A stretch of 64,000 nucleotides of DNA from a virus. Position numbers and translations under genes: made by a program. The stretch's first letter is position 1. The number at the start of each line of letters is the position of its first letter. The stretch lies in the IMG/VR virus record IMGVR_UViG_3300020530_000006; one strand, 5' to 3'. Below the pieces are notes generated by a model, which saw nothing but the letters and a program-made list of their open reading frames with translations, was not told the origin of the DNA and searched no databases. Positions 4,201 through 64,000 of this stretch are shown here, in pieces.

Positions 4201-7200
4201 TTATGGTGGTGGCGTTTCTTCTGGAGAAGCGCATTCAGTAAGTTCATAAATAGTCAAGCATCCATTACTGTCTAAGCCAAGCACTCCAGCACCACCTGAT
4301 CCTAATCCAGCTAAACATTCTTTAAGACCACAAACGTCCGGACATTCTGTTGGTGGAGTAGTTTCTGTAGTCGTTTCTGTAGTCGTTTCTGTAGTAGTAG
4401 TTGTGGTAGTTGTGGTAGTAGTTGGCGTTGTTTCAGTTGTTGTGGTTGTTGTTGTCGTAGTAGTAGAGCACAAACACTCATATGGTTCTTGATTAACAGC
4501 CGAGCTTTCTAAAACAATATATTTGCCATCATTAAAAGCTGCGTATACAACAGTTCCTTTACATAAATTTCTTCCTAGAAAATCTGATATTAAGATTGTA
4601 GAGGCAGTAATATCAGTCATTAAATTTTCGCCATTAGGACCATATATTCCATAATTTTCATAAAATGGACCGTCGTTACTATGAGGATTTAAAAGAATAG
4701 CGTCGGTAGAGCCATATGGTGACAAATCAGATAATAATTGAGCAACGATAATTCTGTCTGATGGTGGGCATACCCAAACACCACGATCTCGATCCCATCT
4801 TAAATCTATTGGACCAGCTGGCCATGTTTTGGGATTCTCTAACCAGTTGGTCATAAAGTTATTTTTGGTACCTTCTGACTTAAATGTTCCAGCCTCGGCC
4901 ATTGCTGGCGAATCTATAATATTTGGAATTGGTTTATTCTCAGTATCATATCCCCAAGATTGTAATACTAATGGACCACGCAAAGCAGCAAACCCATAAT
5001 CTTCTTCATTTTGTTTTTTAGTCTTGTCTTCTAATTCAGAAACTTTATCTCCAAATGCCACATATTGAATATTAAATCCTTCTGCTGAAACTCCCCTACC
5101 TCCCCAATCTTGCAGTAATTTCTTAGATAAAATAGGATTTAAAAATTTTTGATTAATAGGTATTCTTTCCGGATTTCCATTTTTGAAAATGGGAGGCATC
5201 GGTGGTCTACTTTTAGTCAATCTATTTTCAGATTCTTTTGTTCTATCTATTGCTGGAGTCATTGAACCTTTATACTCATTAGCAGAATCTAGATTATATT
5301 TCGAAAATCTGGCCAATCCACCACGAGTTCCACCAAGAGAAATAGGAGTTAAAAGACCATCCATAGACATAATAGCGATATTTTTAAAACCCGCGCCATT
5401 TACAGCATCCTCTATTTCATGTTTAGCATTTAATCCTATCTCATATAATTTCGATCTACTTGCGCTACCTGATGATGGACTTGATGTAGAAGGAGTTCCC
5501 TGTGTAACTTCACATTTGTCTTTAGCTTTTTTTTCTGTGGCCCAGCCGGTTCTGCTTCCATATCCACCACTAGTATTTGTATTAGTGTCTTTATCATAAA
5601 ATCCACCCATGAGTAAAAATCCAGGACTAGCGGCATGTTGCATACCTTGCTGTGGCAAATTTAGTTTATCTAATACTTTAGAAACCGCGGATAAAGCACC
5701 ATATATACCGCTAATCATCTTTCTTCTTTGGTCTTTAATTTTATCAAGAACCTGACTTCTTACAGTATTATTTTCTCTTACCAAAGAAGCTATTGCTTGT
5801 CCATAATCTGCGTATTTTTTAGAAAAGGTTTTAAATGAATAGCTTGTTGTCACACCTCCACTACCATTATAGTTTACATTAATATTATCTACAAAAATTC
5901 CAGCTTGTAAAAAGTATTGAACATTATATCCTGGAGGTTCTGCAAGAGTGAATGATCCATTTTCCGAGATATTAGATGTTCTAATTCCTTGAGACGCCAG
6001 GGCATTGCCCACAGTATATAGTCCTGACCAGCCGCCATAATTCCATGGATTAAGATCAGTAGCAACACTAACTTTTGTTGAGCCAATTGCTCCTCCACCA
6101 CCAACAAATGGACCATAAACATAAACATTGCTTTTCATTGGAACTACTGCATTTTCTATCGCTCCAGCAGCAAAATTCATTTCAAAAATATTAAATGATG
6201 TTACATCAGAGAATCCCTTGTCTCTCTTTATTAATTCATCATATTTATCTGTTCCAAAAAGAACAGCAAAAGCACGAAGTCCTTTATTTAATAAATAATT
6301 TTTTTCTTCTCCAAAATAAGGCAAGCATGCTACAGCACTTTCTGTTTGTATTAAAATTTCTGGAAAAGAAGTATTGGCATTGGTAAAAATAGGATTACCA
6401 GCAGCACTACATTTTAAATAAATTCTATCATTTTTTATAATATATGATGTAGAAGTCATTTCTCTTGGAGCTATTCTGAATTGAGTTTCTTTTCCTGCTA
6501 TAGTTTTTTTGCTACCTCCAAGACTAGAAAAATCAACAAATCCAGAAATTCTATTATCTGGCGTTTCAAATAAAACAGTATCTTGACCAACCACAAGACC
6601 TCTAATTCCTCCACTAAGTTGACCTTCGCTGGGATATCCTCCATCAGAAGGCACATCAGATAAATAATATTGGCCAGTATCACTATAAACAATGCTAGCA
6701 TTACTTCGTGGATATCTACAAAAATTATTCACAGGTATTATATATTTTTTAGCATAATATTCATCAATAAAAGATCTAAACCACTGATATGCCTGATCAT
6801 ATAAAGCATATTTTGCTGCTGAATTAGCTTTTGATGGAATCTTAGATAAACTATTCATTGCTTGTTTCCAATCTATAGTTTTGGAATCACGCTTGAATAG
6901 TACGTTATAAGCATCTATTACACTTTGACCAATACTATCGTTTAAACCAAGAGCCTTAATAATAGCTCCAGATAAGCCTTTTTTATTCATTGTTAAACCA
7001 TACATTAACCACATCTGTTGTGATCCAGAACATATGATTTCTTCTTCAGAAACATAATAATCATCAACACCCAAGTTTATTCCTATAGATTTTAGACTTC
7101 TAACATCCAAAACAAATGTAAAATTACTGTTATATATCCTTTGTGGATTGCCTTTGGAGTCATATCCCATAAACATAGCTATTGGTCTTCTAGAAGCTGA

Positions 7201-8123: not shown

Positions 8124-10472
8124 TTATTTCCTTATAAATATCTTTTCATTATATGATACAAAGTCCAGGAAAACCTCCTCACCAGAATTGTTTTCTATAG
8201 TAACTTTCGTCTCATTCTGATATAGTCCTAAAGAATTAAGATTATCTTGATCTCCTATAATTGTATATACACCCGGAATCAAGTTTGCAAACTTTGTTGA
8301 CACACTAAAGGATTTTTTATAATTTTTTGGCCCATATATATAACATTTTATATTTTTACTTAAATTTATACTTATACTAGACGTATTAGTAGTATCTGAT
8401 GTTTGATCAACGACAACAAATGTTTGATCTAAAATACTTGTGGATAGAACCACCGGTTCTGATTCAATCAAGGGACTAGAAGGTAATTTTGTTTCTTCAA
8501 TTATAATAGGATCATAACCCAGGTAAACAAAAATATCTCCATATAAAAATTTATCTAATACTTGTGAATTATAGGACTGGATAGTTCTTTTAGCAGTAAG
8601 GAAGTGATCGTCGTAGGAAATTTGATTTGAGTTGTATCTTATATTTCTGGGAATATTATTATATAAGTCTTTGATTCTAATTATATAGAATCCATTTTGA
8701 ATATTTTGTACAGATGTGACATTTTTTATAATCTGTTGTCCTTTATATAAGGAGAACAATGATTCCGACCCTTGATCTATGTAGAAATAGTCTATATTGT
8801 ATATATTTTCTGTTATTGTATTGTCTGGATTTTCGAATGCGTTATTACCAATAATATTAAAATTAATAAGACTCGTATATTCAACATTCTCTTTGTTATA
8901 TAAAGAAATATTATTTATGTTATTAAAATTATTGATTGTTTTTAAAATATTTTTAATATTAATAATGTATAAATATTCATCTTTAGATATAGCGCAGTAT
9001 GTTGCGTTAACGTTGACATTTTCATTCAGAATATTGAACTGTTCTAGAAAATTAATAACTGTAACGGCACCAATTTCGTAGGTGTTTATTTGAGTAATTT
9101 TTTTAATATTCTCAAGATAATATTCTGTATTGTCTAAGTCTATATCTCCAATTATTATATTTATATTTCCACCATTATAAAATTCTGGATATTCTAAACC
9201 ATTAAGAATAAAACTACCTCTAACTAAACTAATATTTTCTGGATCTAGATTACCATGTTTGTCTAGTCCAAGAGTAACGTCGAAAGATTGATCTTTATCA
9301 ACAAATTTAATTTCAGAATTCATAAATTCAGGATTATTATTTAGATTGATTGAAGGAGCTATATAGAAATAGTAAAACCAATTATCTGAATTATTGTCTA
9401 GTCTTAAAATTTCTATTTTTTCATCTCCAATACAATATTTATTTAGCAAGTTTTTAACTATGGAATATTCATAAATTTGTCCATCGATAGATAAATTAAT
9501 ACTATCCTTAGTTTTTTTGTCTTTGATTTTTTGCCAAACCTCAGAATTAGAAACGATTAATTTGTATGGAACTAGAATAGTATTAAAAATAGGTATTGGT
9601 TCTCTATATATATAAATTTGATTATCTTCATTGTTTGCTTCTATCTGAAGATTAACAGATATCTCGTTGATATTTGGTAAAACAATACTAGTTTGAGTGG
9701 AACATCCATAATCATTGCTAACCGTTAGGTCGTATGTTCCTGGAGTTAATAAATCATTAAATATATATACATAATTATTTTCGTTTATATTATCTAAATA
9801 TTTAGTTTCTAATGGATGAACATATATCTTTTCTTCTGTAGTAGTATTGGAAAAAATAAAAGAAAATGGACCATATCCATTAACATTACACTCTAGATAA
9901 ACATAACTATCTAATAATTTAGGAGGTAATGTTCTAGTAACAGAAAACACAATTCTACTATCTTTAATTTCAATTGTTCGTGGCCAACGATAAGAACATC
10001 CAGCGCTATCAGATAATAATACTGTATATTCTCCATGAACTATATCGTTAAATCTTATATTATTTGTTTCTGTTGTTGTAGATTGAGAATCAATTGAGCA
10101 AAAATAGGGTGGGGTTCCACCACTTATTTCAAGATATATATAGCCATTATTATTTTCACACGCATATTCTGAATATTTTAATTCTGTTATGGATAACTCT
10201 GGAGGAGATGTTATAGTTACAGAGTATACGTCTCCTTCAGCATCTGATGATGTGCTTACAACTTTGAATGTGTATGTGCCGTTAGATAAATTTGTTGCTA
10301 TAAATCCATCATTAGATATAAAAGAGCTTTCAGAAAAATTGCCACCCCATTGTATGACATAGTTTTCATAAGCGCTTGTTTCGGACTCATCGAATTCTAT
10401 ATTTTCAATAAATATACTAGCAATATTATTATCAAAACAAGTATTGTTGATTGTCGAATATATTATTTCCAT
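8124..10472 (-). CDS. Virion protein with Ig-like/SprB-type repeats
   Basis: NLSNGTYTFKV, ISGGTPPY, LTPGTYDLTVS..GC, NLIPGVYTI motifs. Confidence 0.6.
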   Translation of the reverse strand: MEIIYSTINNTCFDNNIASIFIENIEFDESETSAYENYVIQWGGNFSESSFISNDGFIATNLSNGTYTFKVVSTSSDAEGDVYSVTITSPPELSITELKYSEYACENNNGYIYLEISGGTPPYFCSIDSQSTTTETNNIRFNDIVHGEYTVLLSDSAGCSYRWPRTIEIKDSRIVFSVTRTLPPKLLDSYVYLECNVNGYGPFSFIFSNTTTEEKIYVHPLETKYLDNINENNYVYIFNDLLTPGTYDLTVSNDYGCSTQTSIVLPNINEISVNLQIEANNEDNQIYIYREPIPIFNTILVPYKLIVSNSEVWQKIKDKKTKDSINLSIDGQIYEYSIVKNLLNKYCIGDEKIEILRLDNNSDNWFYYFYIAPSINLNNNPEFMNSEIKFVDKDQSFDVTLGLDKHGNLDPENISLVRGSFILNGLEYPEFYNGGNINIIIGDIDLDNTEYYLENIKKITQINTYEIGAVTVINFLEQFNILNENVNVNATYCAISKDEYLYIINIKNILKTINNFNNINNISLYNKENVEYTSLINFNIIGNNAFENPDNTITENIYNIDYFYIDQGSESLFSLYKGQQIIKNVTSVQNIQNGFYIIRIKDLYNNIPRNIRYNSNQISYDDHFLTAKRTIQSYNSQVLDKFLYGDIFVYLGYDPIIIEETKLPSSPLIESEPVVLSTSILDQTFVVVDQTSDTTNTSSISINLSKNIKCYIYGPKNYKKSFSVSTKFANLIPGVYTIIGDQDNLNSLGLYQNETKVTIENNSGEEVFLDFVSYNEKIFIRK

Positions 10473-57916: not shown

Positions 57917-58179
57917 TTTTTACTCGCTAAAATTTTACTAAATACTGGAGCATATATTTCTTCCTGGTTTTTAATCATATCATGATGAATTTTGCAGAGA
58001 GAAATTCCATTATCTATTACGAATCTTAGAGCGGGGAAATCGGCCCATTTGTAAATATGGTGGGCGTGTAATTTTTTCTTGAAGGTGCAATTTGGCCATT
58101 GGCATTGATAGTGATCTCTTTTGTAAACATTTTTTCGCCACTGTTTATAAACAGGATCGTTGTAGTTTCTATTGTTCAT
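57913..58179 (-). CDS. HNH endonuclease (packaging-associated type)
   Basis: RDHYQCQ..C...HAHHI...NGISLCKIHH. Confidence 0.9.
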   Translation of the reverse strand: MNNRNYNDPVYKQWRKNVYKRDHYQCQWPNCTFKKKLHAHHIYKWADFPALRFVIDNGISLCKIHHDMIKNQEEIYAPVFSKILASKK

Positions 58180-58993
58180 GTTTCATTACTGATTCTGGAG
58201 TTAAAAATGGGGTATCTAATTTGCCGTCTTGATATTGGTGATAACTCATAAGGTTGTCTTTGGCTTTGTTTGTCGCCAAGCGAATAATTTCCATTTCGCG
58301 TCCCTCTTTTTCTCTAACATCTTCGTCTTCTAGCATTCTTATTAAACCAACCCAACTACTTTTACCATCTTCGATTCTTTTGATACGTTGTTCTCGTGTG
58401 GCTTTTAAATCTTTACTAATTTTTTGTTGTTCGCCAAGTAATTTAGTATATTCATTTGTATAATTTGCTATACTATTTCGTGCGAAACTTAATTGGGTTT
58501 CTAAATTTGCTAATCGTGGAACATCTCTTTGATCATCGGGCTTGTCGTATTCTGCATCTACCAGACGTTGTAATTTTTCGGTTTCGCTAATATGACGCTT
58601 ACGCTCTTTCATACTTCTATTGATAAGAATATCTATAGTGATAAATTGTTTGATCTGTAATTCTTCAGCAGGAAGAACGTCCTCTCTGAACTGCTTCAAT
58701 AAATTAATCCAAACATTCTCAAAGTATTCTAGTTCACCACTCTCTTCGTCAAATTGCTTTTTAATTTCGTGCCAGAATGTTTTTCCGTATAGTTTTTGTT
58801 TGAGCAGATCATCTTCTGCTGCTTGGTCTCCTGATAAGAGATTCTTAGTTTCGCTAATATATCTTTTAATGGGGGCAACATTGCGATTTAATTGTTCGGC
58901 AATAGTTTCTACTGTTAAAGTTTGTAGATTATCTCGTATGAATTTTTCTTCTTCGAGACTAAGTTGGCCACGTTTTTTAGGAATCGATGTCAT
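58169..58993 (-). CDS. Candidate terminase small subunit
   Basis: N-terminal HTH (IAEQLNRN) plus coiled-coil, upstream of terL. Confidence 0.45.
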   Translation of the reverse strand: MTSIPKKRGQLSLEEEKFIRDNLQTLTVETIAEQLNRNVAPIKRYISETKNLLSGDQAAEDDLLKQKLYGKTFWHEIKKQFDEESGELEYFENVWINLLKQFREDVLPAEELQIKQFITIDILINRSMKERKRHISETEKLQRLVDAEYDKPDDQRDVPRLANLETQLSFARNSIANYTNEYTKLLGEQQKISKDLKATREQRIKRIEDGKSSWVGLIRMLEDEDVREKEGREMEIIRLATNKAKDNLMSYHQYQDGKLDTPFLTPESVMKHEQ

Positions 58994-59615
58994 GATCTTT
59001 TAATATTTGTTTAATCTCTTTAATAAGTTTATTTATTTCGGTTTTGGGGACTTTGCTGTTTCCTAATAGTTTGAGAAATATGGGGCGATTTTTAACACTA
59101 ATATTTTCATCTATTATTTTGATGATTTCCTTATTGCTAATATTTTTGAGCAGATTGTCATTCGTTATCTCTTTGCTATTTTCACTTATGTTATCTATGG
59201 TCACGGGCTTCATAATATTCTTTTTGCTTTCGTTTCTTTTGGTCCAAGAAGAATATAAAGAACATTCAGCTTTGTCTGTGAATTCGGAACATTGGCTAGA
59301 GCAAGACGAGTCCTTTCCCTTAAAAAAGGGGCAAGTTAAGCAAGGTTTATCGGGCCTTTGATAGTTATCTCTTTTATAATTAAAAAGTCTATTACGAACG
59401 TGGGTCCAAAGGAAATTTTCTAGGGGGCGACTTTTATCGTAATTTTTAAGTCCTTCCAATGCGAATATTGCGGCTTGTTGCTTCATATCTTCGTGACTGT
59501 GATATCCAAACTTAAATTTATAACCAAGTTTTTTACTAATTTTTTCCCAAACAGCAACAAATTCAGCTTCTTTCACTGTTGGGTGAAACTGGCTTTTCTT
59601 GGTTTTCTTTGTCAT
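58977..59615 (-). CDS. Phage sigma-70-family factor (region 2) with Cys-rich insert
   Basis: EDMKQQAAIFALEGLKNYDKSRPLENFLWTHVRNRLFNYKR matches sigma regions 2.2-2.4. Confidence 0.7.
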   Translation of the reverse strand: MTKKTKKSQFHPTVKEAEFVAVWEKISKKLGYKFKFGYHSHEDMKQQAAIFALEGLKNYDKSRPLENFLWTHVRNRLFNYKRDNYQRPDKPCLTCPFFKGKDSSCSSQCSEFTDKAECSLYSSWTKRNESKKNIMKPVTIDNISENSKEITNDNLLKNISNKEIIKIIDENISVKNRPIFLKLLGNSKVPKTEINKLIKEIKQILKDHDIDS

Positions 59616-59736
59616 TTAATATTTCCTTTAGTGGTTTATCTTCGGCGTTAGCGATTTCTTCTTCGGTAACAAGGTTTTCGCTAGCCACAGTTTTTAAAGT
59701 TGATGATATTGTGTGTATGTGTTTAGAATTTTTCAT
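59563..59736 (-). CDS. Small hypothetical protein (57 aa)
   Basis: MKNSKHIHTISS...; AAGGA RBS; below the ORF-track cutoff. Confidence 0.45.
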   Translation of the reverse strand: MKNSKHIHTISSTLKTVASENLVTEEEIANAEDKPLKEILNDKENQEKPVSPNSERS

Positions 59737-59820
59737 TATTTATCCTTGACCAGATTTTTGTTCTATTTATAGTATAATAGATGTTTGATACACAAAAGGC
59801 AAATTTAGCAGGAGAATAAA

Positions 59821-60039
59821 ATGTCAAAAACATACAAAAAGTGGACTAAAGAAGAGATGGATTTTGTGGCCAATAACAGTAAAAACATGAAGGACGAAGA
59901 AATTGCTACCTATTTGAACAAGATTGATGGGTCAAGAGTTATTACTGTGGGCATGGTAAGACGTCAAAGGCGTAAGATGAGTATCTCGAAGCCAAGGGGT
60001 CGTAGGCCATCTGTTGCTAAGATTGAAAACGCAACCTGA
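59821..60039 (+). CDS. Small Myb/HTH-like DNA-binding protein
   Basis: KKWTKEEMDFV...EEIATYL...VRRQRRKM; AGGAG RBS. Confidence 0.7.
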   Translation: MSKTYKKWTKEEMDFVANNSKNMKDEEIATYLNKIDGSRVITVGMVRRQRRKMSISKPRGRRPSVAKIENAT

Positions 60040-60068
60040 ATCTGCGAAATATAACTAGGAATAAATCG

Positions 60069-60096
60069 GGCGATGTTAAGAGCATCGCCTTTTTTA
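60069..60096 (+). terminator. Rho-independent terminator
   Basis: GGCGATG-TTAAGAG-CATCGCC-TTTTTT. Confidence 0.8.
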
Positions 60097-60263
60097 TTTA
60101 ATGTGGGGATTAAGGCTATTAAACTGGCTAATTAGATATGGGTTGCTTACTATGTTTATACCACCGCCGGGTTTTGGGGGTTCAACCCCCCATTGGAGGG
60201 AAAACAGAAAAACCCCCCTATTGGGGAATAGGCTACATACCCCCCAACGGTAGGGTAACCTCG

Positions 60264-60279
60264 AGCAAATCCCATGCCA
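60264..60279 (-). promoter_or_regulatory. Sigma-54 (-24/-12) consensus site
   Basis: TGGCATGGGATTTGCT. Confidence 0.6.
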
Positions 60280-60480
60280 AACCGATAGAGCGACGAAACT
60301 TTCACCAACCCCACCAACGGGGGAGATATTGAATCGGCCAGATTCGATTTTGCCAAGGTGTCCATTGGGCGTAACTCCAATACTGGTAAGGGTTTAGGGA
60401 AAATCTGAAAATCGGATTTGACCGTTTCGCATAAAATGGAACGTCGAAAGAAAGAATCTAAAAACTCACAAGATTCTAAC

Positions 60481-60509
60481 TTGCGACTGCCGAAGATAGA
60501 GAGTAGACT
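60481..60509 (+). promoter_or_regulatory. Sigma-70-type promoter
   Basis: TTGCGA-17-TAGACT after A/T tracts. Confidence 0.55.
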
Positions 60510-60551
60510 TCGGGCATGATGATGGAAACCCAAACCCAAAAGGCTAATAAG

Positions 60552-60791
60552 ATGCAAACCGCATACGCTCCCGTTCACACCGGCCACTACATTTTCGCCA
60601 CCCGCAAGGATGGCCGCGATTTTGTGGGCCATATTCAATCCGTCAAGGCTCTTGCCAAGGGTACGTTCGTTGTCGTGAGGATTGCGGATGACGTAGACGG
60701 GCCGGTTTACAAGTCCTTTTATCTGGAAAGCCTCAACTCGTGGGCGACCCATGAGGACTATAGCGTTCTCGCCCACGACTATAACCTGTGA
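60552..60791 (+). CDS. Small beta-barrel (SH3/Sm-like) protein, paralogue of 61382-61627
   Basis: DGRDFVGHI..V.A.AKGT.V.VR...KSFYLE; start probably MQTA. Confidence 0.6.
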   Translation: MQTAYAPVHTGHYIFATRKDGRDFVGHIQSVKALAKGTFVVVRIADDVDGPVYKSFYLESLNSWATHEDYSVLAHDYNL

Positions 60792-60844
60792 GGGTTGTAG
60801 ACCGGCGTTTATAGGGGTATATTGAATCCAACCGAAAGGAAATC

Positions 60845-61000
60845 ATGAGCGATTTTGAGCGTATCATTGCCGATAGTATGATCGACGAGGATGGTCGCGA
60901 GTGGATTGTTGAGGATGCTACGGGTTGGGATGATGACGAATGGATTGACGTTGACGATTATTACCCCGAAGATTTTCAAGGTGAGGAGGAGTTCGCATGA
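60845..61000 (+). CDS. Highly acidic 51-aa protein
   Basis: MSDFERIIADSMIDEDGREWIVEDATGWDDDEWIDVDDYYPEDFQGEEEFA; AAGGA RBS; not in the ORF track. Confidence 0.65.
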   Translation: MSDFERIIADSMIDEDGREWIVEDATGWDDDEWIDVDDYYPEDFQGEEEFA

Positions 61001-61137
61001 CGATTCTGGAAAGCGATTGCTGCTACGCTCCGGTGGTGCTGGAGGACATTTGTTCACGATGCAAGGAACATTGTGAGCCTATATGGGTGGAAACCGAGGA
61101 GGATAACGGACAGCCCGGATTCCTTCCGGGAACCTAA
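60997..61137 (+). CDS. 46-aa Zn-finger protein
   Basis: SDCCYAP...ICSRCKEHC; ATGA overlap with upstream gene. Confidence 0.6.
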   Translation: MTILESDCCYAPVVLEDICSRCKEHCEPIWVETEEDNGQPGFLPGT

Positions 61138-61187
61138 CCCCCTCTATGGTAGGGAAACAACGAACTCTCCCCCGTAAGGGGGGTTGA

Positions 61188-61348
61188 CTGCCAAAATGGC
61201 AGAAATCCCGCGGTTTCTGCCAAAATGGCAGGCACTGCAAATCCTGTGCCAAACTCTATAAAAAATATTTGGCATGATATTTGCTCTCACAAAAAAACTT
61301 TTTCCTAACACAATCCTAACTTGAATCCTAAAGTTCGATCTGTATAAT
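61188..61348. promoter_or_regulatory. Regulatory module 1: paired palindromes, back-to-back sigma-54 sites, sigma-70 promoter
   Basis: CTGCCAAAATGGCAG at 61188 and 61217; TGGCACAGGATTTGCA (-, 61236-61251); TGGCATGATATTTGCT (+, 61270-61285); TTGAAT-16-TATAAT (61321-61348). Confidence 0.8.
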
Positions 61349-61381
61349 GTCGATATAAGAAGTAACCCAGGAGAACAGAAG

Positions 61382-61627
61382 ATGACCAAGTTCGGAAGCG
61401 TCAAGGTTGGATACGGTTTCGAGTGTGAGAAGAATAACGGCAAGACGTATGCGGGTGAGATCGTCAAGGTTGCCGCATACGCTCGCGGTACACTGGTCAC
61501 GATTCGATACCCTGATCGTCTCGAAAATGATCGTATGTATAGTGTGGGTGAGATGTCGATGATCCACAAGAGCATCTACCTTGAAGATTGCAAGGTTTGG
61601 TTCACCGAGGAGCCATCCCTCGTGTGA
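61382..61627 (+). CDS. Small beta-barrel (SH3/Sm-like) protein
   Basis: AGGAG RBS; aligns with 60552-60791. Confidence 0.7.
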   Translation: MTKFGSVKVGYGFECEKNNGKTYAGEIVKVAAYARGTLVTIRYPDRLENDRMYSVGEMSMIHKSIYLEDCKVWFTEEPSLV

Positions 61628-61692
61628 GGGGGTTGTGCAGCATAGAAAAGTTTGGTACATTCCGTTTTTCACTTCACCATAGGAAAAGAATC

Positions 61693-62013
61693 ATGAGTTT
61701 CCCGATCATCGAAAATGCCAAGCGTCAAGCCTACCTGTGCTTCGTGGGATTGGCGATCCCTTGCGACAAGCGTACCGTAGACGGCGGAACGATTCGCAGT
61801 GAGAAGGTTCTGAAGTTCAATCGGTCTGCTATGCGGGATAGCGTCAACGTCAAGGCCGAAAAGGTTGACCCCCGCATGGGTAGGGGTGAGGATACGATGA
61901 TCGTCAAGGTTGGCAAGCCCGGTAGTCGGGAGAGGGTGGAGGCTTTGCGGTCGCAGTACGAGGCTACCCTCACTATGGGGGAGGAGATTAGCCCCTTCGC
62001 TTGGGAGGGGTGA
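61693..62013 (+). CDS. Hypothetical protein
   Basis: Start MSFPII after an AGGA RBS. Confidence 0.6.
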   Translation: MSFPIIENAKRQAYLCFVGLAIPCDKRTVDGGTIRSEKVLKFNRSAMRDSVNVKAEKVDPRMGRGEDTMIVKVGKPGSRERVEALRSQYEATLTMGEEISPFAWEG

Positions 62014-62032
62014 CCCACCCACAAGAGGGGAT

Positions 62033-62179
62033 CTGTCAAGTTGGCAGCCTCGACTGCCAAAATGGCAGAAACCGCGGCCTTTCTGCCAAAATGGCAGGCA
62101 CAAGCAAATACCGTGCCAAACAACAAAATATTATTTTTGGTATTTTTATGGTTGACATTCAAGGTATGGCTGGTAGAAT
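62033..62179. promoter_or_regulatory. Regulatory module 2
   Basis: Degenerate box at 62033, boxes at 62054 and 62083; TGGCACGGTATTTGCT (-, 62103-62118); TTGACA-16-TAGAAT (62152-62179). Confidence 0.8.
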
Positions 62180-62209
62180 ACCGATATACCTAGCAGAGAG
62201 GAAAAGAAA

Positions 62210-62425
62210 ATGATCGACAACAAAATCAAAGATGCGTTGGTTCAGATTTGGGGAAGCGAAAGCCATAACGTCCAGTTTATCGGTTTGGCCGATGGTAAAC
62301 TTTACGCCGAGTGTGCAGAAACTCTCCAGTGTAAGCGTCTTACCGATCTCAACTATCGGAACGTGCTGAACGATATGTTCTACGATTACTGCGTGGAAAA
62401 GGCCGCTTGGATGGGGATTTCGTAG
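62210..62425 (+). CDS. Hypothetical protein
   Basis: GAGG RBS, first gene after module 2. Confidence 0.65.
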   Translation: MIDNKIKDALVQIWGSESHNVQFIGLADGKLYAECAETLQCKRLTDLNYRNVLNDMFYDYCVEKAAWMGIS

Positions 62426-62508
62426 TCCCCCTGTTGTGGGGGTTGATTTGTCTTATCCGATCCTATCGGATTGGCAAGGTGGGCTATAGTCAGCGAAAGT
62501 GAGGGAAC

Positions 62509-62595
62509 ATGGAAATCCTTATTAGTTTGGTATTGACAGGATGGATTGCTGGTAGTATGATTCTTAGTATGATTTGGTTGCTTTCACTGGAGTAG
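62509..62595 (+). CDS. 28-aa hydrophobic (single TM) peptide
   Basis: MEILISLVLTGWIAGSMILSMIWLLSLE; GAGG RBS. Confidence 0.45.
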   Translation: MEILISLVLTGWIAGSMILSMIWLLSLE

Positions 62596-62599
62596 AAAA

Positions 62600-62815
62600 A
62601 TGGATTACCAGAAAACCTATAAGTTTGATAATGGTTACGGGGCTAGTGTGGTTTGTAACTTTGGAACCTATGGGGCCAAAGATGGTCTTTTCGAGGTTGC
62701 TGTGCTTGACAGTAACGGAGAGATTGCATACAATACGCCCATCACTAATGATGTTATTGGTTGGCTTGACTTTGCGGACGTTGCGGATATTCTGAATAAG
62801 ATTAAGGCTCTGTAA
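62600..62815 (+). CDS. Hypothetical protein (F.NGYGASVV...GLFEVAVL type)
   Basis: GGAG RBS; globular-looking sequence. Confidence 0.7.
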   Translation: MDYQKTYKFDNGYGASVVCNFGTYGAKDGLFEVAVLDSNGEIAYNTPITNDVIGWLDFADVADILNKIKAL

Positions 62816-62830
62816 TCTAAGGAAAATAAA

Positions 62831-63133
62831 ATGAACTACGCCGAAGCGGTATCTATGGTGCATGGGAAGACCAATCGTAAAGAACGGAAGATTGGTAATA
62901 ATACATACGCCGAAATCGGATATGATGATAGCGTTTCCATTCGGTTGCATGGTACAGCGGTTGTAAGGTTTTATCCTAACGGGCTGGTGAAGTTGAATAG
63001 TGGCGGATGGCGAACCAGTACCACAAAGGATAGGATTAACAAGTATTCTCCTGTTAAAGTTTACCAGCGAAAGTATGAATGGTATTTGCAGGATGGTACA
63101 GAGTTTGAAGATAATATTCTGGTTAACTCTTAA
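62831..63133 (+). CDS. Hypothetical protein
   Basis: AAGGA RBS; LHGT.V...LNSGGW.T.TTK.RIN motif. Confidence 0.7.
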   Translation: MNYAEAVSMVHGKTNRKERKIGNNTYAEIGYDDSVSIRLHGTAVVRFYPNGLVKLNSGGWRTSTTKDRINKYSPVKVYQRKYEWYLQDGTEFEDNILVNS

Positions 63134-63148
63134 AGAAAGGGGCTAGGG

Positions 63149-63256
63149 ATGGCCGATATAAACTGGGTATATATTGGTGTGGGATTTGTTTGCGGTGTTA
63201 TTGCTAGTTACTTTGTTTGTGATCTTGTTTTTCCAATAAGGAAGCATGATGAATAA
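63149..63256 (+). CDS. 35-aa single-TM peptide
   Basis: MADINWVYIGVGFVCGVIASYFVCDLVFPIRKHDE. Confidence 0.45.
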   Translation: MADINWVYIGVGFVCGVIASYFVCDLVFPIRKHDE

Positions 63257-63323
63257 AAGTGATTATATTATTTTGACCGGATCTTTTATCCTGGGTTGCC
63301 TCACAGTTTACCTAATCCACTAA
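63246..63323 (+). CDS. 25-aa single-TM peptide
   Basis: MMNKSDYIILTGSFILGCLTVYLIH; AAGGA RBS. Confidence 0.4.
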   Translation: MMNKSDYIILTGSFILGCLTVYLIH

Positions 63324-63333
63324 ATCTAACGGG

Positions 63334-63456
63334 CTGCCAAAACGGCAGTTTCCGCGGCCGATCTGCCAAAATGGCAGGCTAGCAAACGGTGTGCCACAAA
63401 AATCTTTTTTTGACTACATTTTCTTTGCTTGACAAGCCGATATCTAACTGTAGAAT
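63334..63456. promoter_or_regulatory. Regulatory module 3
   Basis: Boxes at 63334 (one mismatch) and 63363; TGGCACACCGTTTGCT (-, 63381-63396); TTGACA-16-TAGAAT (63429-63456). Confidence 0.8.
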
Positions 63457-63485
63457 CAACGCATCACCCCAACGGAGATTGAAAA

Positions 63486-63650
63486 ATGATTCTCGAAGAT
63501 ACGGATACCATCAACGCGATTCTGAATCAACTTGTTGACGAGCGTATGGTCGAGCCGATTGATGATCCTCAAAACCTGACCGACTTCTGGGATTGGGCCG
63601 AAGTGGTCGGCATTGTTGACGAGTTTGCTCCCCTTGACGAACGGTTTTGA
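63486..63650 (+). CDS. Acidic 54-aa protein
   Basis: MILEDTDTINAILNQLVDERMVEPIDDPQNLTDFWDWAEVVGIVDEFAPLDERF; GGAG RBS. Confidence 0.6.
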   Translation: MILEDTDTINAILNQLVDERMVEPIDDPQNLTDFWDWAEVVGIVDEFAPLDERF

Positions 63651-63671
63651 TTAGTGTAGAAAGGATAAGTC

Positions 63672-63947
63672 ATGAGTCACCCCGATCCCCTTCACGACGA
63701 GGAGAACACGATGAGCCAGGATTCTTTTGACCGTTTCGACGAGATGGCCGAGCGTACGATTTGGCCGTGGATTGATGATGAGTCGCACGAAGCCGACGAT
63801 ATCAACTATGATGATTTCAACGACTTCACCGATGAGGACGAGTACGATGATAGCATGGACGGCGACCACGAGAGCGGCCTCGCCAGTGCTGGCTGGGGAA
63901 CCGATGAGGACTACGGTTTCTACGGCGATTATAACGAGGATTACTGA
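63672..63947 (+). CDS. Highly acidic 91-aa protein
   Basis: Very D/E-rich with aromatic residues; DGDHESGLASAGWGTDEDYG. Confidence 0.7.
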   Translation: MSHPDPLHDEENTMSQDSFDRFDEMAERTIWPWIDDESHEADDINYDDFNDFTDEDEYDDSMDGDHESGLASAGWGTDEDYGFYGDYNEDY

Positions 63948-63960
63948 AAACAACCCCGAT

Positions 63961-64000
63961 CTGCCAAAATGGCAGCGGGGCCGCGATTTCTGCCAAAATG
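63961..64000. promoter_or_regulatory. Regulatory module 4 (truncated by the window edge)
   Basis: Box 63961-63975, 14-bp spacer, second box from 63990. Confidence 0.8.

Follow-up and report, generated by a model that had tools for sequence, protein, structure and literature searches.

Twin palindromes at the early-gene cassette borders of a large uncultured lake phage: a putative PeSL-like linker accompanied by sigma-54-type sites

Introduction

T4-type phages (RB49/phi1, T4/PST and KVP40/nt-1) carry mobile promoter/terminator linkers, the promoter-early stem-loops (PeSLs). In these small composite elements, through which modules are shuffled, a stem-loop, which is a proven terminator, is joined to an AT-rich tract and to a strong early promoter of sigma-70-like type (PMC2839356, PMC4122927). 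Here, we describe a repeated element of comparable build in a 64,000-nt stretch of viral DNA, referred to as the window in the following, which corresponds to bases 76339-140338 of the virus record IMGVR_UViG_3300020530_000006. This record (159,255 bp; IMG/VR) is rated complete by CheckV and represents an uncultured lake phage. The element is centered on a pair of 15-bp palindromes, the boxes, and first appears at the start of a 13.5-kb early block, whose GC content is 43-45%, compared with about 33% in the remaining genome. We consider it probable, if only by a small measure, that the modules built around these pairs are PeSL-like composite linkers between early-gene cassettes, whose stem-loop part became a fixed twin operator.

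The likeness to PeSLs lies in the order of the parts, that is, a stem-loop-forming sequence, an AT-rich tract, a sigma-70-like early promoter and a ribosome-binding site, in their repetition between small orphan early genes, and in the fact that relatives differ by cassettes swapped at the repeats. Unlike PeSLs, the modules occur in a large lake phage that is not of the T4 type, and they contain a fixed pair of invariant palindromes in a 29-bp phase, which is found across deeply diverged phages and points to recognition by a protein. Furthermore, some modules carry sigma-54-type sites, and the promoter and terminator roles of their parts are assigned here from sequence alone.

Several bacterial control regions share individual traits with these modules. 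In rrnB P1, Fis sites at about -71 and -102 and an UP element accompany a strong core promoter. Sigma-54 (RpoN) promoters, such as glnAp2 and pspA, are enhancer-dependent and of the -24/-12 type; the NtrC-type enhancer of glnAp2 consists of TGCACCA-N3-TGGTGCA pairs, which are about three helical turns apart. That a phage can use sigma-54 is illustrated by the sigma-54-like promoter reported in Pseudomonas phage YuA (PMC10914365). Besides this report and the PeSL papers, our literature searches for the motif string and for phage sigma-54 early promoters returned nothing relevant, and we found no published account of the module or of sigma-54-type arrays like those reported below.

Twin palindromes in the early block

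The 15-bp palindrome CTGCCAAAATGGCAG occurs seven times in the window at no more than one mismatch (61188, 61217, 62054, 62083, 63334, 63363 and 63961). In shuffled versions of the window, 0.17 boxes are expected, and no shuffle reached seven; an eighth box (63990) is cut off by the window end. The boxes form pairs of the type CTGCCAAAATGGCAG-N14-CTGCCAAAATGGCAG, which are exactly 29 bp in phase and whose 14-bp spacers are GC-rich and retain CCGCG. An initial annotation of the window had described four copies of the pair, starting at 61188, 62054, 63334 and 63961, with the same 14-bp distance, phase and spacer core, and our analysis bears out all of these points.

Module 1 (61188-61231, plus strand) consists of box 1 (61188-61202), the 14-bp spacer and box 2 (61217-61231); between the upstream stop codon and this module lies a C-run/G-run hairpin, CCCCCGTAAGGGGGG (61169-61183). 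The box scan places module 2 at 62054-62097 and module 3, whose box 1 carries a T10>C change, at 63334-63377, both on the plus strand. Module 4 (63961-64000, plus strand) is truncated by the window end; in the genome, it is followed 12 bp downstream by TTGACA and has no sigma-54-type site. Ten further modules lie beyond it and reach genome position 150992. The whole genome holds 14 box pairs (genome positions 137526-150992), all within the early block and none elsewhere. All 14 modules share one orientation, and each is located between a stop codon and a promoter, in the order upstream stop codon, CTGCCA-WWW-TGGCAG twice, T-rich UP-like tract, sigma-70-like promoter, ribosome-binding site and next small genes.

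Conservation of the boxes

About 45 uncultured viral contigs, 4-224 kb in length, contain the exact box pair, in 64 stretches altogether. When we scanned 185,579 reference species genomes for the pair, we found it on one contig only, a 1.8-kb phage fragment in a metagenome-assembled genome. In this genome, which is of unknown completeness and whose tie to the phage is unproven, there were no other boxes and no RpoN match. Since the sole match among the species genomes is a phage fragment, these scans provide no evidence that the motif serves as a regulatory site of the host. The scan of phage and bacterial genomes for the box that had been suggested with the initial annotation was thus productive on the phage side, where it revealed the 14 modules, but not on the bacterial side.

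For a detailed view of conservation, we compared 171 distinct oriented modules from related loci and this genome; the resulting counts ignore shared descent. Positions G3, G11 and C13 are conserved in 100% of the modules, and the arms in general in more than 95%. The three central bases are W-rich and variable, mostly AAA on the gene strand, while the spacer varies in sequence but never in length. In some 170 distinct copies from deeply diverged phages, the box arms hence remain near-invariant, while centers, spacers, promoters and genes diverge. The substitutions that do occur in the arms are mostly uncompensated, and we therefore conclude that selection acts on the sequence and not on pairing alone, which is the signature of a protein site. 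The boxes display the features of an operator, i.e. dyad symmetry, conserved arms, a tolerant center and diverging flanks.

Two models based on structure were evaluated on the same modules, a long hairpin of box 1 with box 2 and an individual hairpin for each box. Both show little compensatory change, and most changes break the pairing in the plus strand, which led us to reject a purely structural reading. As a separate observation, the spacers contain a core, GGCCGCG, which reads in either direction and always lies off center, at 3 nt from one of the boxes and 4 nt from its partner.

Early promoters and cassette borders

In the window, the three complete modules precede sigma-70 promoters on the plus strand, which our promoter scan recovered with the 16-bp spacers given in the initial annotation. 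These are TTGAAT-16-TATAAT of cluster 2 at 61321-61348 (L009 coordinates 2160-2187), TTGACA-16-TAGAAT with an extended -10 TG at 62152-62179 (L009 2991-3018) and TTGACA-16-TAGAAT at 63429-63456 (L009 4268-4295). Over the whole block, promoters of the TTGACA-16/17-TAGAAT type (10-11 of 12 matches, often with TG) stand after 13 of the 14 box pairs, with T-rich tracts in between. In 11 of the 14 modules, box 2 runs directly into the T-rich tract and then into a near-consensus promoter, TTGACA(AGCCGATA)-N-TGTAGAAT, without a sigma-54-type site. The earlier proposal of palindromes fused to sigma-54 sites ahead of every early gene cluster does not hold for these 11 modules, nor for the later modules of the relatives.

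When a module has no sigma-54 site, box 2 lies most often 23-24 bp from the -35 element (22-25 bp in 75 of 116 modules), and a second group of such modules is found at 12-16 bp; insertion of one sigma-54 site brings the distance to 51-54 bp, that is, 29 bp more. Judging from the promoter hexamers, the box centers would be located near -65 and -94 of the early promoter. This arrangement is reminiscent of rrnB P1, with which it shares a strong core promoter, an A/T-rich upstream tract and two putative protein sites about 30 bp apart at comparable positions, but the E. coli Fis motif, with G at -7 and C at +7, is not matched by the box. In the main clade, the boxes hint at a helical phasing with the -35 element, but they do not in distant clades; because the spacing is looser in the most distant of these, we regard the phasing as suggestive and do not rely on it.

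About 13 more strong sigma-70-like promoters in the block, including those in front of transfer RNA (tRNA) genes, lack boxes, from which it follows that the boxes are markers of cassette borders and that a promoter does not require them. In the early promoters, we also noticed a recurrent word, CCGATA, either in the spacer between the -35 and -10 elements (TTGACAAGCCGATA) or right after the -10 element (TAGAATACCGATATA), for example in window 62160-62195 and at genome positions 146727-146760. It may represent a second protein site or a signal of the start region.

A BLASTN comparison of the early block with its relatives shows that homology blocks start and stop at modules. For example, blocks end at 4342-4357 and homology resumes at 4998, and other blocks start at 4913, 6893, 8960-8964, 10662 and 11966; the matching module positions are 4300, 4913, 6892, 8964, 10662 and 11966. 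In the related locus L066, the cassettes are arranged in a different order, again with junctions at modules. It is because homology between relatives breaks exactly at the modules that we read them as PeSL-like linkers. Cassette boundaries at modules and a variable cassette order could also arise if the boxes were the sites of a dedicated site-specific recombinase, in the manner of integrons or other cassette systems. We deem this extremely improbable, given that the genes checked near the block did not include a recombinase gene and that the breakpoints are spread over the whole module of about 100 bp, including the promoter (e.g. 4342 and 4998), as expected for homologous exchange.

As for the operator part of the linker, the twin palindromes would most likely dock two dimers of a sequence-specific DNA-binding protein, encoded by the host or the phage. 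Bound in this way, the dimers would occupy positions of about -65 and -94 with respect to the early promoter, as well as the 3' end of the preceding cassette. There, they could insulate the upstream unit or end its transcription, and could modulate or silence the promoter. Hairpins could also form from the box sequence, either in RNA or in extruded DNA.

What may bind the boxes

The best phage-encoded candidate for a box-binding protein is p72 (59821-60039, plus strand), a small conserved three-helix protein of DNA-binding type, which has its own promoter and terminator and adjoins the early block. It is kept in 31 related loci. An alignment (A1) features the motif WTxxE...MVRRQRRK with an invariant third helix, as well as an AT-hook-like C-terminal tail, KPRGRP, with an RGR motif. 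The AlphaFold model of p72 (predicted local distance difference test, pLDDT, 84) is a three-helix bundle, for which fold comparisons returned foremost Myb, GcrA and small-terminase helix-turn-helix domains, none of them at a significant level. In G003, a complete 210-kb box-bearing relative, p72 is undetectable, which is why we consider it a weak candidate.

The N-terminus of p72 (WTKEEMDFVANN...EIATYLNK) resembles that of a neighboring 274-aa protein (window 58172-58993; LSLEEEKFIRDN...TIAEQLNR), and the two proteins may share one DNA-binding module. Because of this resemblance, p72 may instead serve in packaging. The invariance of the box across very different phages fits a host factor at least as well as p72, and neither the species-genome scan nor the literature provided a host motif that matches the box.

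The missing p72 in a box-bearing relative weighs against a twin operator, and so does a number of other observations. The left arm is better kept than the right, which is a poor fit to a simple symmetric operator. The commonest arm changes, T10>C in box 1 and G12>A in box 2, result in C.A mismatches on the plus strand and in G.U pairs on the minus strand (56 versus 15), an asymmetry that is not explained by a symmetric dimer. In about 15% of the modules, complementary but non-homologous flanks lengthen the stem of box 1, by at least 4 bp in 26 modules versus 8 expected, and hairpin formation may thus matter in its own right. The spacing between boxes and promoters is loose in the most distant clades (L012, L020 and L064), and its peak elsewhere could stem from common descent instead of selection. 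Lastly, near-consensus promoters should need no activator, and -65 and -94 are unusual positions for a repressor.

The lengthened stems would be readily understood if the box pair were a plain PeSL-type stem-loop, which acts only as an RNA hairpin that terminates or stabilizes the upstream transcript and involves no specific protein. This would also be in line with the strong predicted fold of the 44-nt element (-21 to -35 kcal/mol, z down to -5.1), with its start at or just past the upstream stop codon, with the T-rich tract after box 2 in 11 of 14 modules and with the terminator activity of PeSL stem-loops (PMC2839356, PMC4122927). A terminator can do without a fixed sequence, but the arms stay invariant throughout about 170 copies and each box is palindromic in itself. 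Moreover, the frequent variants TGACAG and CGGCAG introduce C.A mismatches into the plus-strand RNA, and just 2 of the 14 modules pass a simple terminator scan, even with T runs present. The fixed 14-bp spacer and the 29-bp phase would be left unaccounted for as well. We therefore consider it rather unlikely that the boxes are stem-loops and nothing else, and continue to favor the linker with a twin operator.

Sigma-54-type sites

Exact TGGCAC-N5-TTGC sequences occur three times in 159 kb, each on the minus strand of one of the modules 1-3 (in the window, 3 versus 0.12 expected). They are TGGCACAGGATTTGC at 61237-61251, TGGCACGGTATTTGC at 62104-62118 and TGGCACACCGTTTGC at 63382-63396, and they lie 4-6 bp past box 2. 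Counting the W of TTGCW, as was done in the initial annotation, gives 3-5 bp; that annotation had placed them correctly. The same annotation had listed two more sites, which we find to be TGGCAT variants. One is the lone site TGGCATGGGATTTGC (60265-60279, minus strand), which lies upstream of the first early cluster and is conserved in relatives; the other, TGGCATGATATTTGC (61270-61284, plus strand), faces the next gene cluster. There are none elsewhere in this genome.

The relatives provide a much larger sample. In 557 kb of related loci, we counted 146 distinct TGGCA[CT]-N5-TTGC sites, compared with 0-3 at every other spacing from N2 to N9, and the bases between the two elements vary freely. 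The layout is also kept: a lone minus-strand site stands back-to-back with the first early sigma-70 promoter, and the first 2-6 modules then each have one or two minus-strand sites, 4-6 bp past box 2, whereas the later modules of every relative have no sigma-54-type site. Within 120 bp past box 2, 57 sites are antisense and 14 sense. The sites are often doubled at a distance of 26-38 bp. Between the left arm of box 2 and the -24 element of the first site, the distance is 29 +/- 1 bp, and YTGCCAAA units recur in this phase. Judging by their position, orientation and strict N5 spacing, all of which are kept in relatives, the sigma-54-type sites are not chance occurrences. With regard to the earlier expectation that the GG/GC spacing would be retained in further copies, the strict N5 is indeed retained among the relatives' sites, but the fusion of box and site breaks down in the further copies of this genome.

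With the promoters glnAp2, pspA and that of YuA, these sites share the sequence TGGCAC-N5-TTGC[AT] and the strict spacing; in contrast to them, most face away from genes, abut a palindrome or terminator, and form arrays in the first early cassettes only. By the usual distance from -12 to +1, the predicted start of the minus-strand sites falls in the center of box 2, as for the site at 61237-61251. Directly downstream of the lone site and on the same strand, our terminator scan detected an intrinsic terminator (CCCCAATAGGGGGG and a T run; 60202-60229, minus strand). This CCCC...GGGG hairpin with T run follows the lone site in about 17 of 20 relatives as well, and the product of the site would be about 25-30 nt long. 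Generally, the minus-strand sites face box 2 or a hairpin with T run, while the plus-strand site at 61270 is the only one to face a gene.

We found no sigma-54 gene in this genome or in five large relatives, and a search of the same genomes with Sigma54_activat gave only weak AAA+ matches to proteins of about 300 aa. Likewise, no upstream activator site was identified for the minus-strand sites, downstream of which the boxes lie. An activator of the host may act from solution.

These sites, which would most likely bind host sigma-54 RNA polymerase, are distinct from the rest of the module and constitute a conserved addition to the first cassettes only. With a palindrome or terminator just a few bases ahead of them, they would yield at most very short RNAs or hold the enzyme beside the first early promoters. 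Their dead-end geometry accordingly suggests that host sigma-54 polymerase is parked there or that tiny RNAs are made.

The initial annotation had likened the boxes to the paired palindromes bound by enhancer-binding proteins such as NtrC, and had noted that their overlap with the predicted sigma-54 start is atypical. In an enhancer-type role, the paired palindromes would be host NtrC-type activator sites that serve the adjacent sigma-54 promoters. The two dyads are in fact about three helical turns apart, as in glnAp2, and have an inner CCA-N3-TGG core similar to that of the NtrC site, and the plus-strand site of module 1 (61270) lies about 70-100 bp downstream of the boxes. The half-sites are, however, one base shorter. 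For the dominant minus-strand sites, the boxes would be at about -6 to +38, where they are downstream of the site and overlap the predicted start, which is not the geometry of an enhancer. In addition, 11 of the 14 pairs lack a sigma-54 partner, so that most of them serve nothing but sigma-70 promoters, the lone sigma-54 site is without boxes, and the pair was not found in the 185,579 species genomes save for the one phage fragment. An enhancer function is, in our view, very unlikely.

The reading of the initial annotation, with a decoy array for host RpoN and an activator, a host-state sensor or a source of short antisense hairpin RNAs, is, overall, only partly supported. The sigma-54-type sites are real, strongly non-random and kept in relatives, and short antisense RNAs, or a parking or sink role for the polymerase, are possible. 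In one form of the latter, the twin palindromes and the sigma-54-type sites would jointly capture host sigma-54 polymerase, and possibly a host regulator that reads TGGCA, in dead-end complexes on the first cassettes, and would thereby disarm sigma-54-dependent host responses or let the state of the host gate the earliest promoters. We see this as a possible, if not a probable, scenario, and found no published precedent for such a use of sigma-54.

In another form, the sites themselves, perhaps aided by the TGGCAG arms, would hold host polymerase in silent closed complexes, which would drain the factor or gate the adjacent sigma-70 promoters. The sites are textbook matches with a strict N5, are present in several and often doubled copies per genome, point from genes into a terminator or palindrome, and are not accompanied by any phage-encoded activator that we could find. 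Furthermore, their -24 element is in the same phase as the left arms of the boxes, and the footprint of the polymerase would, at its upstream edge, reach into the UP tract of the divergent sigma-70 promoter. Orientation and position of the sites are both conserved, although a pure decoy would have no need to fix either; just five sites exist in this genome, 11 of the 14 box pairs lack one, and the minus-strand terminators behind the sites suggest that they fire. We judge such a sink to be rather improbable.

If the sites do fire, they could be activator-dependent sigma-54 promoters of short antisense or non-coding RNAs with box hairpins, in which case the boxes would matter on the minus strand. 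The conserved orientation, the terminator-like hairpins behind the sites on that strand, the bias of arm substitutions to minus-strand G.U pairing described above and the sigma-54-like promoter of phage YuA (PMC10914365) are all in keeping with such RNAs. On the other hand, a start in the middle of box 2 means that the hairpin of this box cannot form in the RNA, and the lone site would yield only about 25-30 nt. The G.U-type variants are mostly found in modules without a sigma-54 site, and neither an activator nor an upstream activator site was identified. We consider such hairpin-bearing RNAs from activator-dependent promoters distinctly unlikely.

Two further features should be mentioned here. 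In 74% of the modules, one of the two strands carries a hidden GG-N10-GC pattern, formed by a box arm and the CCGC of the spacer; the pattern is absent from one distinct clade, and base composition explains much of it. Behind the lone site, a non-coding control region (window 60100-60280, minus strand) is conserved, in which two or three C-run/G-run hairpins, the first with a T run, are followed by GGCGGTGGT and then by the conserved word AATT(A/G)GCCAGTTTAATAGCC. This region could be an attenuator or, because it adjoins the HNH and terminase genes, a packaging site (cos or pac).

Genomic surroundings

To the left of the early block, the minus strand encodes a sigma-70-family-like protein, the 274-aa protein, an HNH nuclease, an ERCC4 nuclease and the large terminase. 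The genes of the early block are all small and all on the plus strand; they mostly encode proteins of 35-170 aa without a Pfam or PHROG function. Based on this arrangement of packaging-type minus-strand genes on the left and small plus-strand genes on the right, the region is the junction of a leftward late/packaging block and a rightward early block. The sigma-70-family-like gene (212 aa; 58977-59615, minus strand) is the first of the leftward block and is kept in 27-29 related loci; its match to Sigma70_r2 (22 bits) is below the cut-off. The GC skew is reversed across the early block (genome 136000-151000; window 59700-64000 onward). As for the different GC content of the block, one idea is that it may avoid the silencing of AT-rich incoming DNA.

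Several products of the early block merit a comment. Paralogous proteins of 79-81 aa open the first two early clusters (window 60552-60791 and 61382-61627); they are 37% identical in relatives, are found in one to two copies in most related loci and belong to no known family. The most widely kept early protein (window 61695-62015; 106-129 aa, about 106 aa when read from ATG) is present in 31 related loci and has no match in Pfam, PHROG or Atlas. Farther into the block, a 101-aa protein (L009 10230-10532, genome 145729-146031) matches the C-terminal domain of ribosomal protein L7/L12 (Pfam PF00542, 31 bits) and may mimic the ribosomal stalk. The cassette array also includes eight tRNA genes (Glu, Arg, Thr, Gln, Asn, Tyr, Lys and Ser; L009 6227-16890, genome 141726-152389), several of which have their own consensus promoters and one of which is located directly upstream of a box pair.

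A DNA search with the early region gave no match among cultured phages. In a terminase search, the closest cultured phages, which infect Microcystis and Bacillus, were just about 25% identical, so that no host can be inferred from them.

Significance

The boxes represent one invariant regulatory motif that is common to dozens of large uncultured freshwater phages, and identifying the protein that binds it would show how the early program of these phages is operated and switched off. As exchange points of early cassettes, the modules extend the idea of the mobile promoter/terminator linker beyond T4-type phages. Finally, the conserved and mostly dead-end sigma-54 sites raise the question whether phages park, drain or sense the alternative polymerase of their host. 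Since the sigma-54 consensus is universal, this question is testable with E. coli components, even though the host is uncultured.

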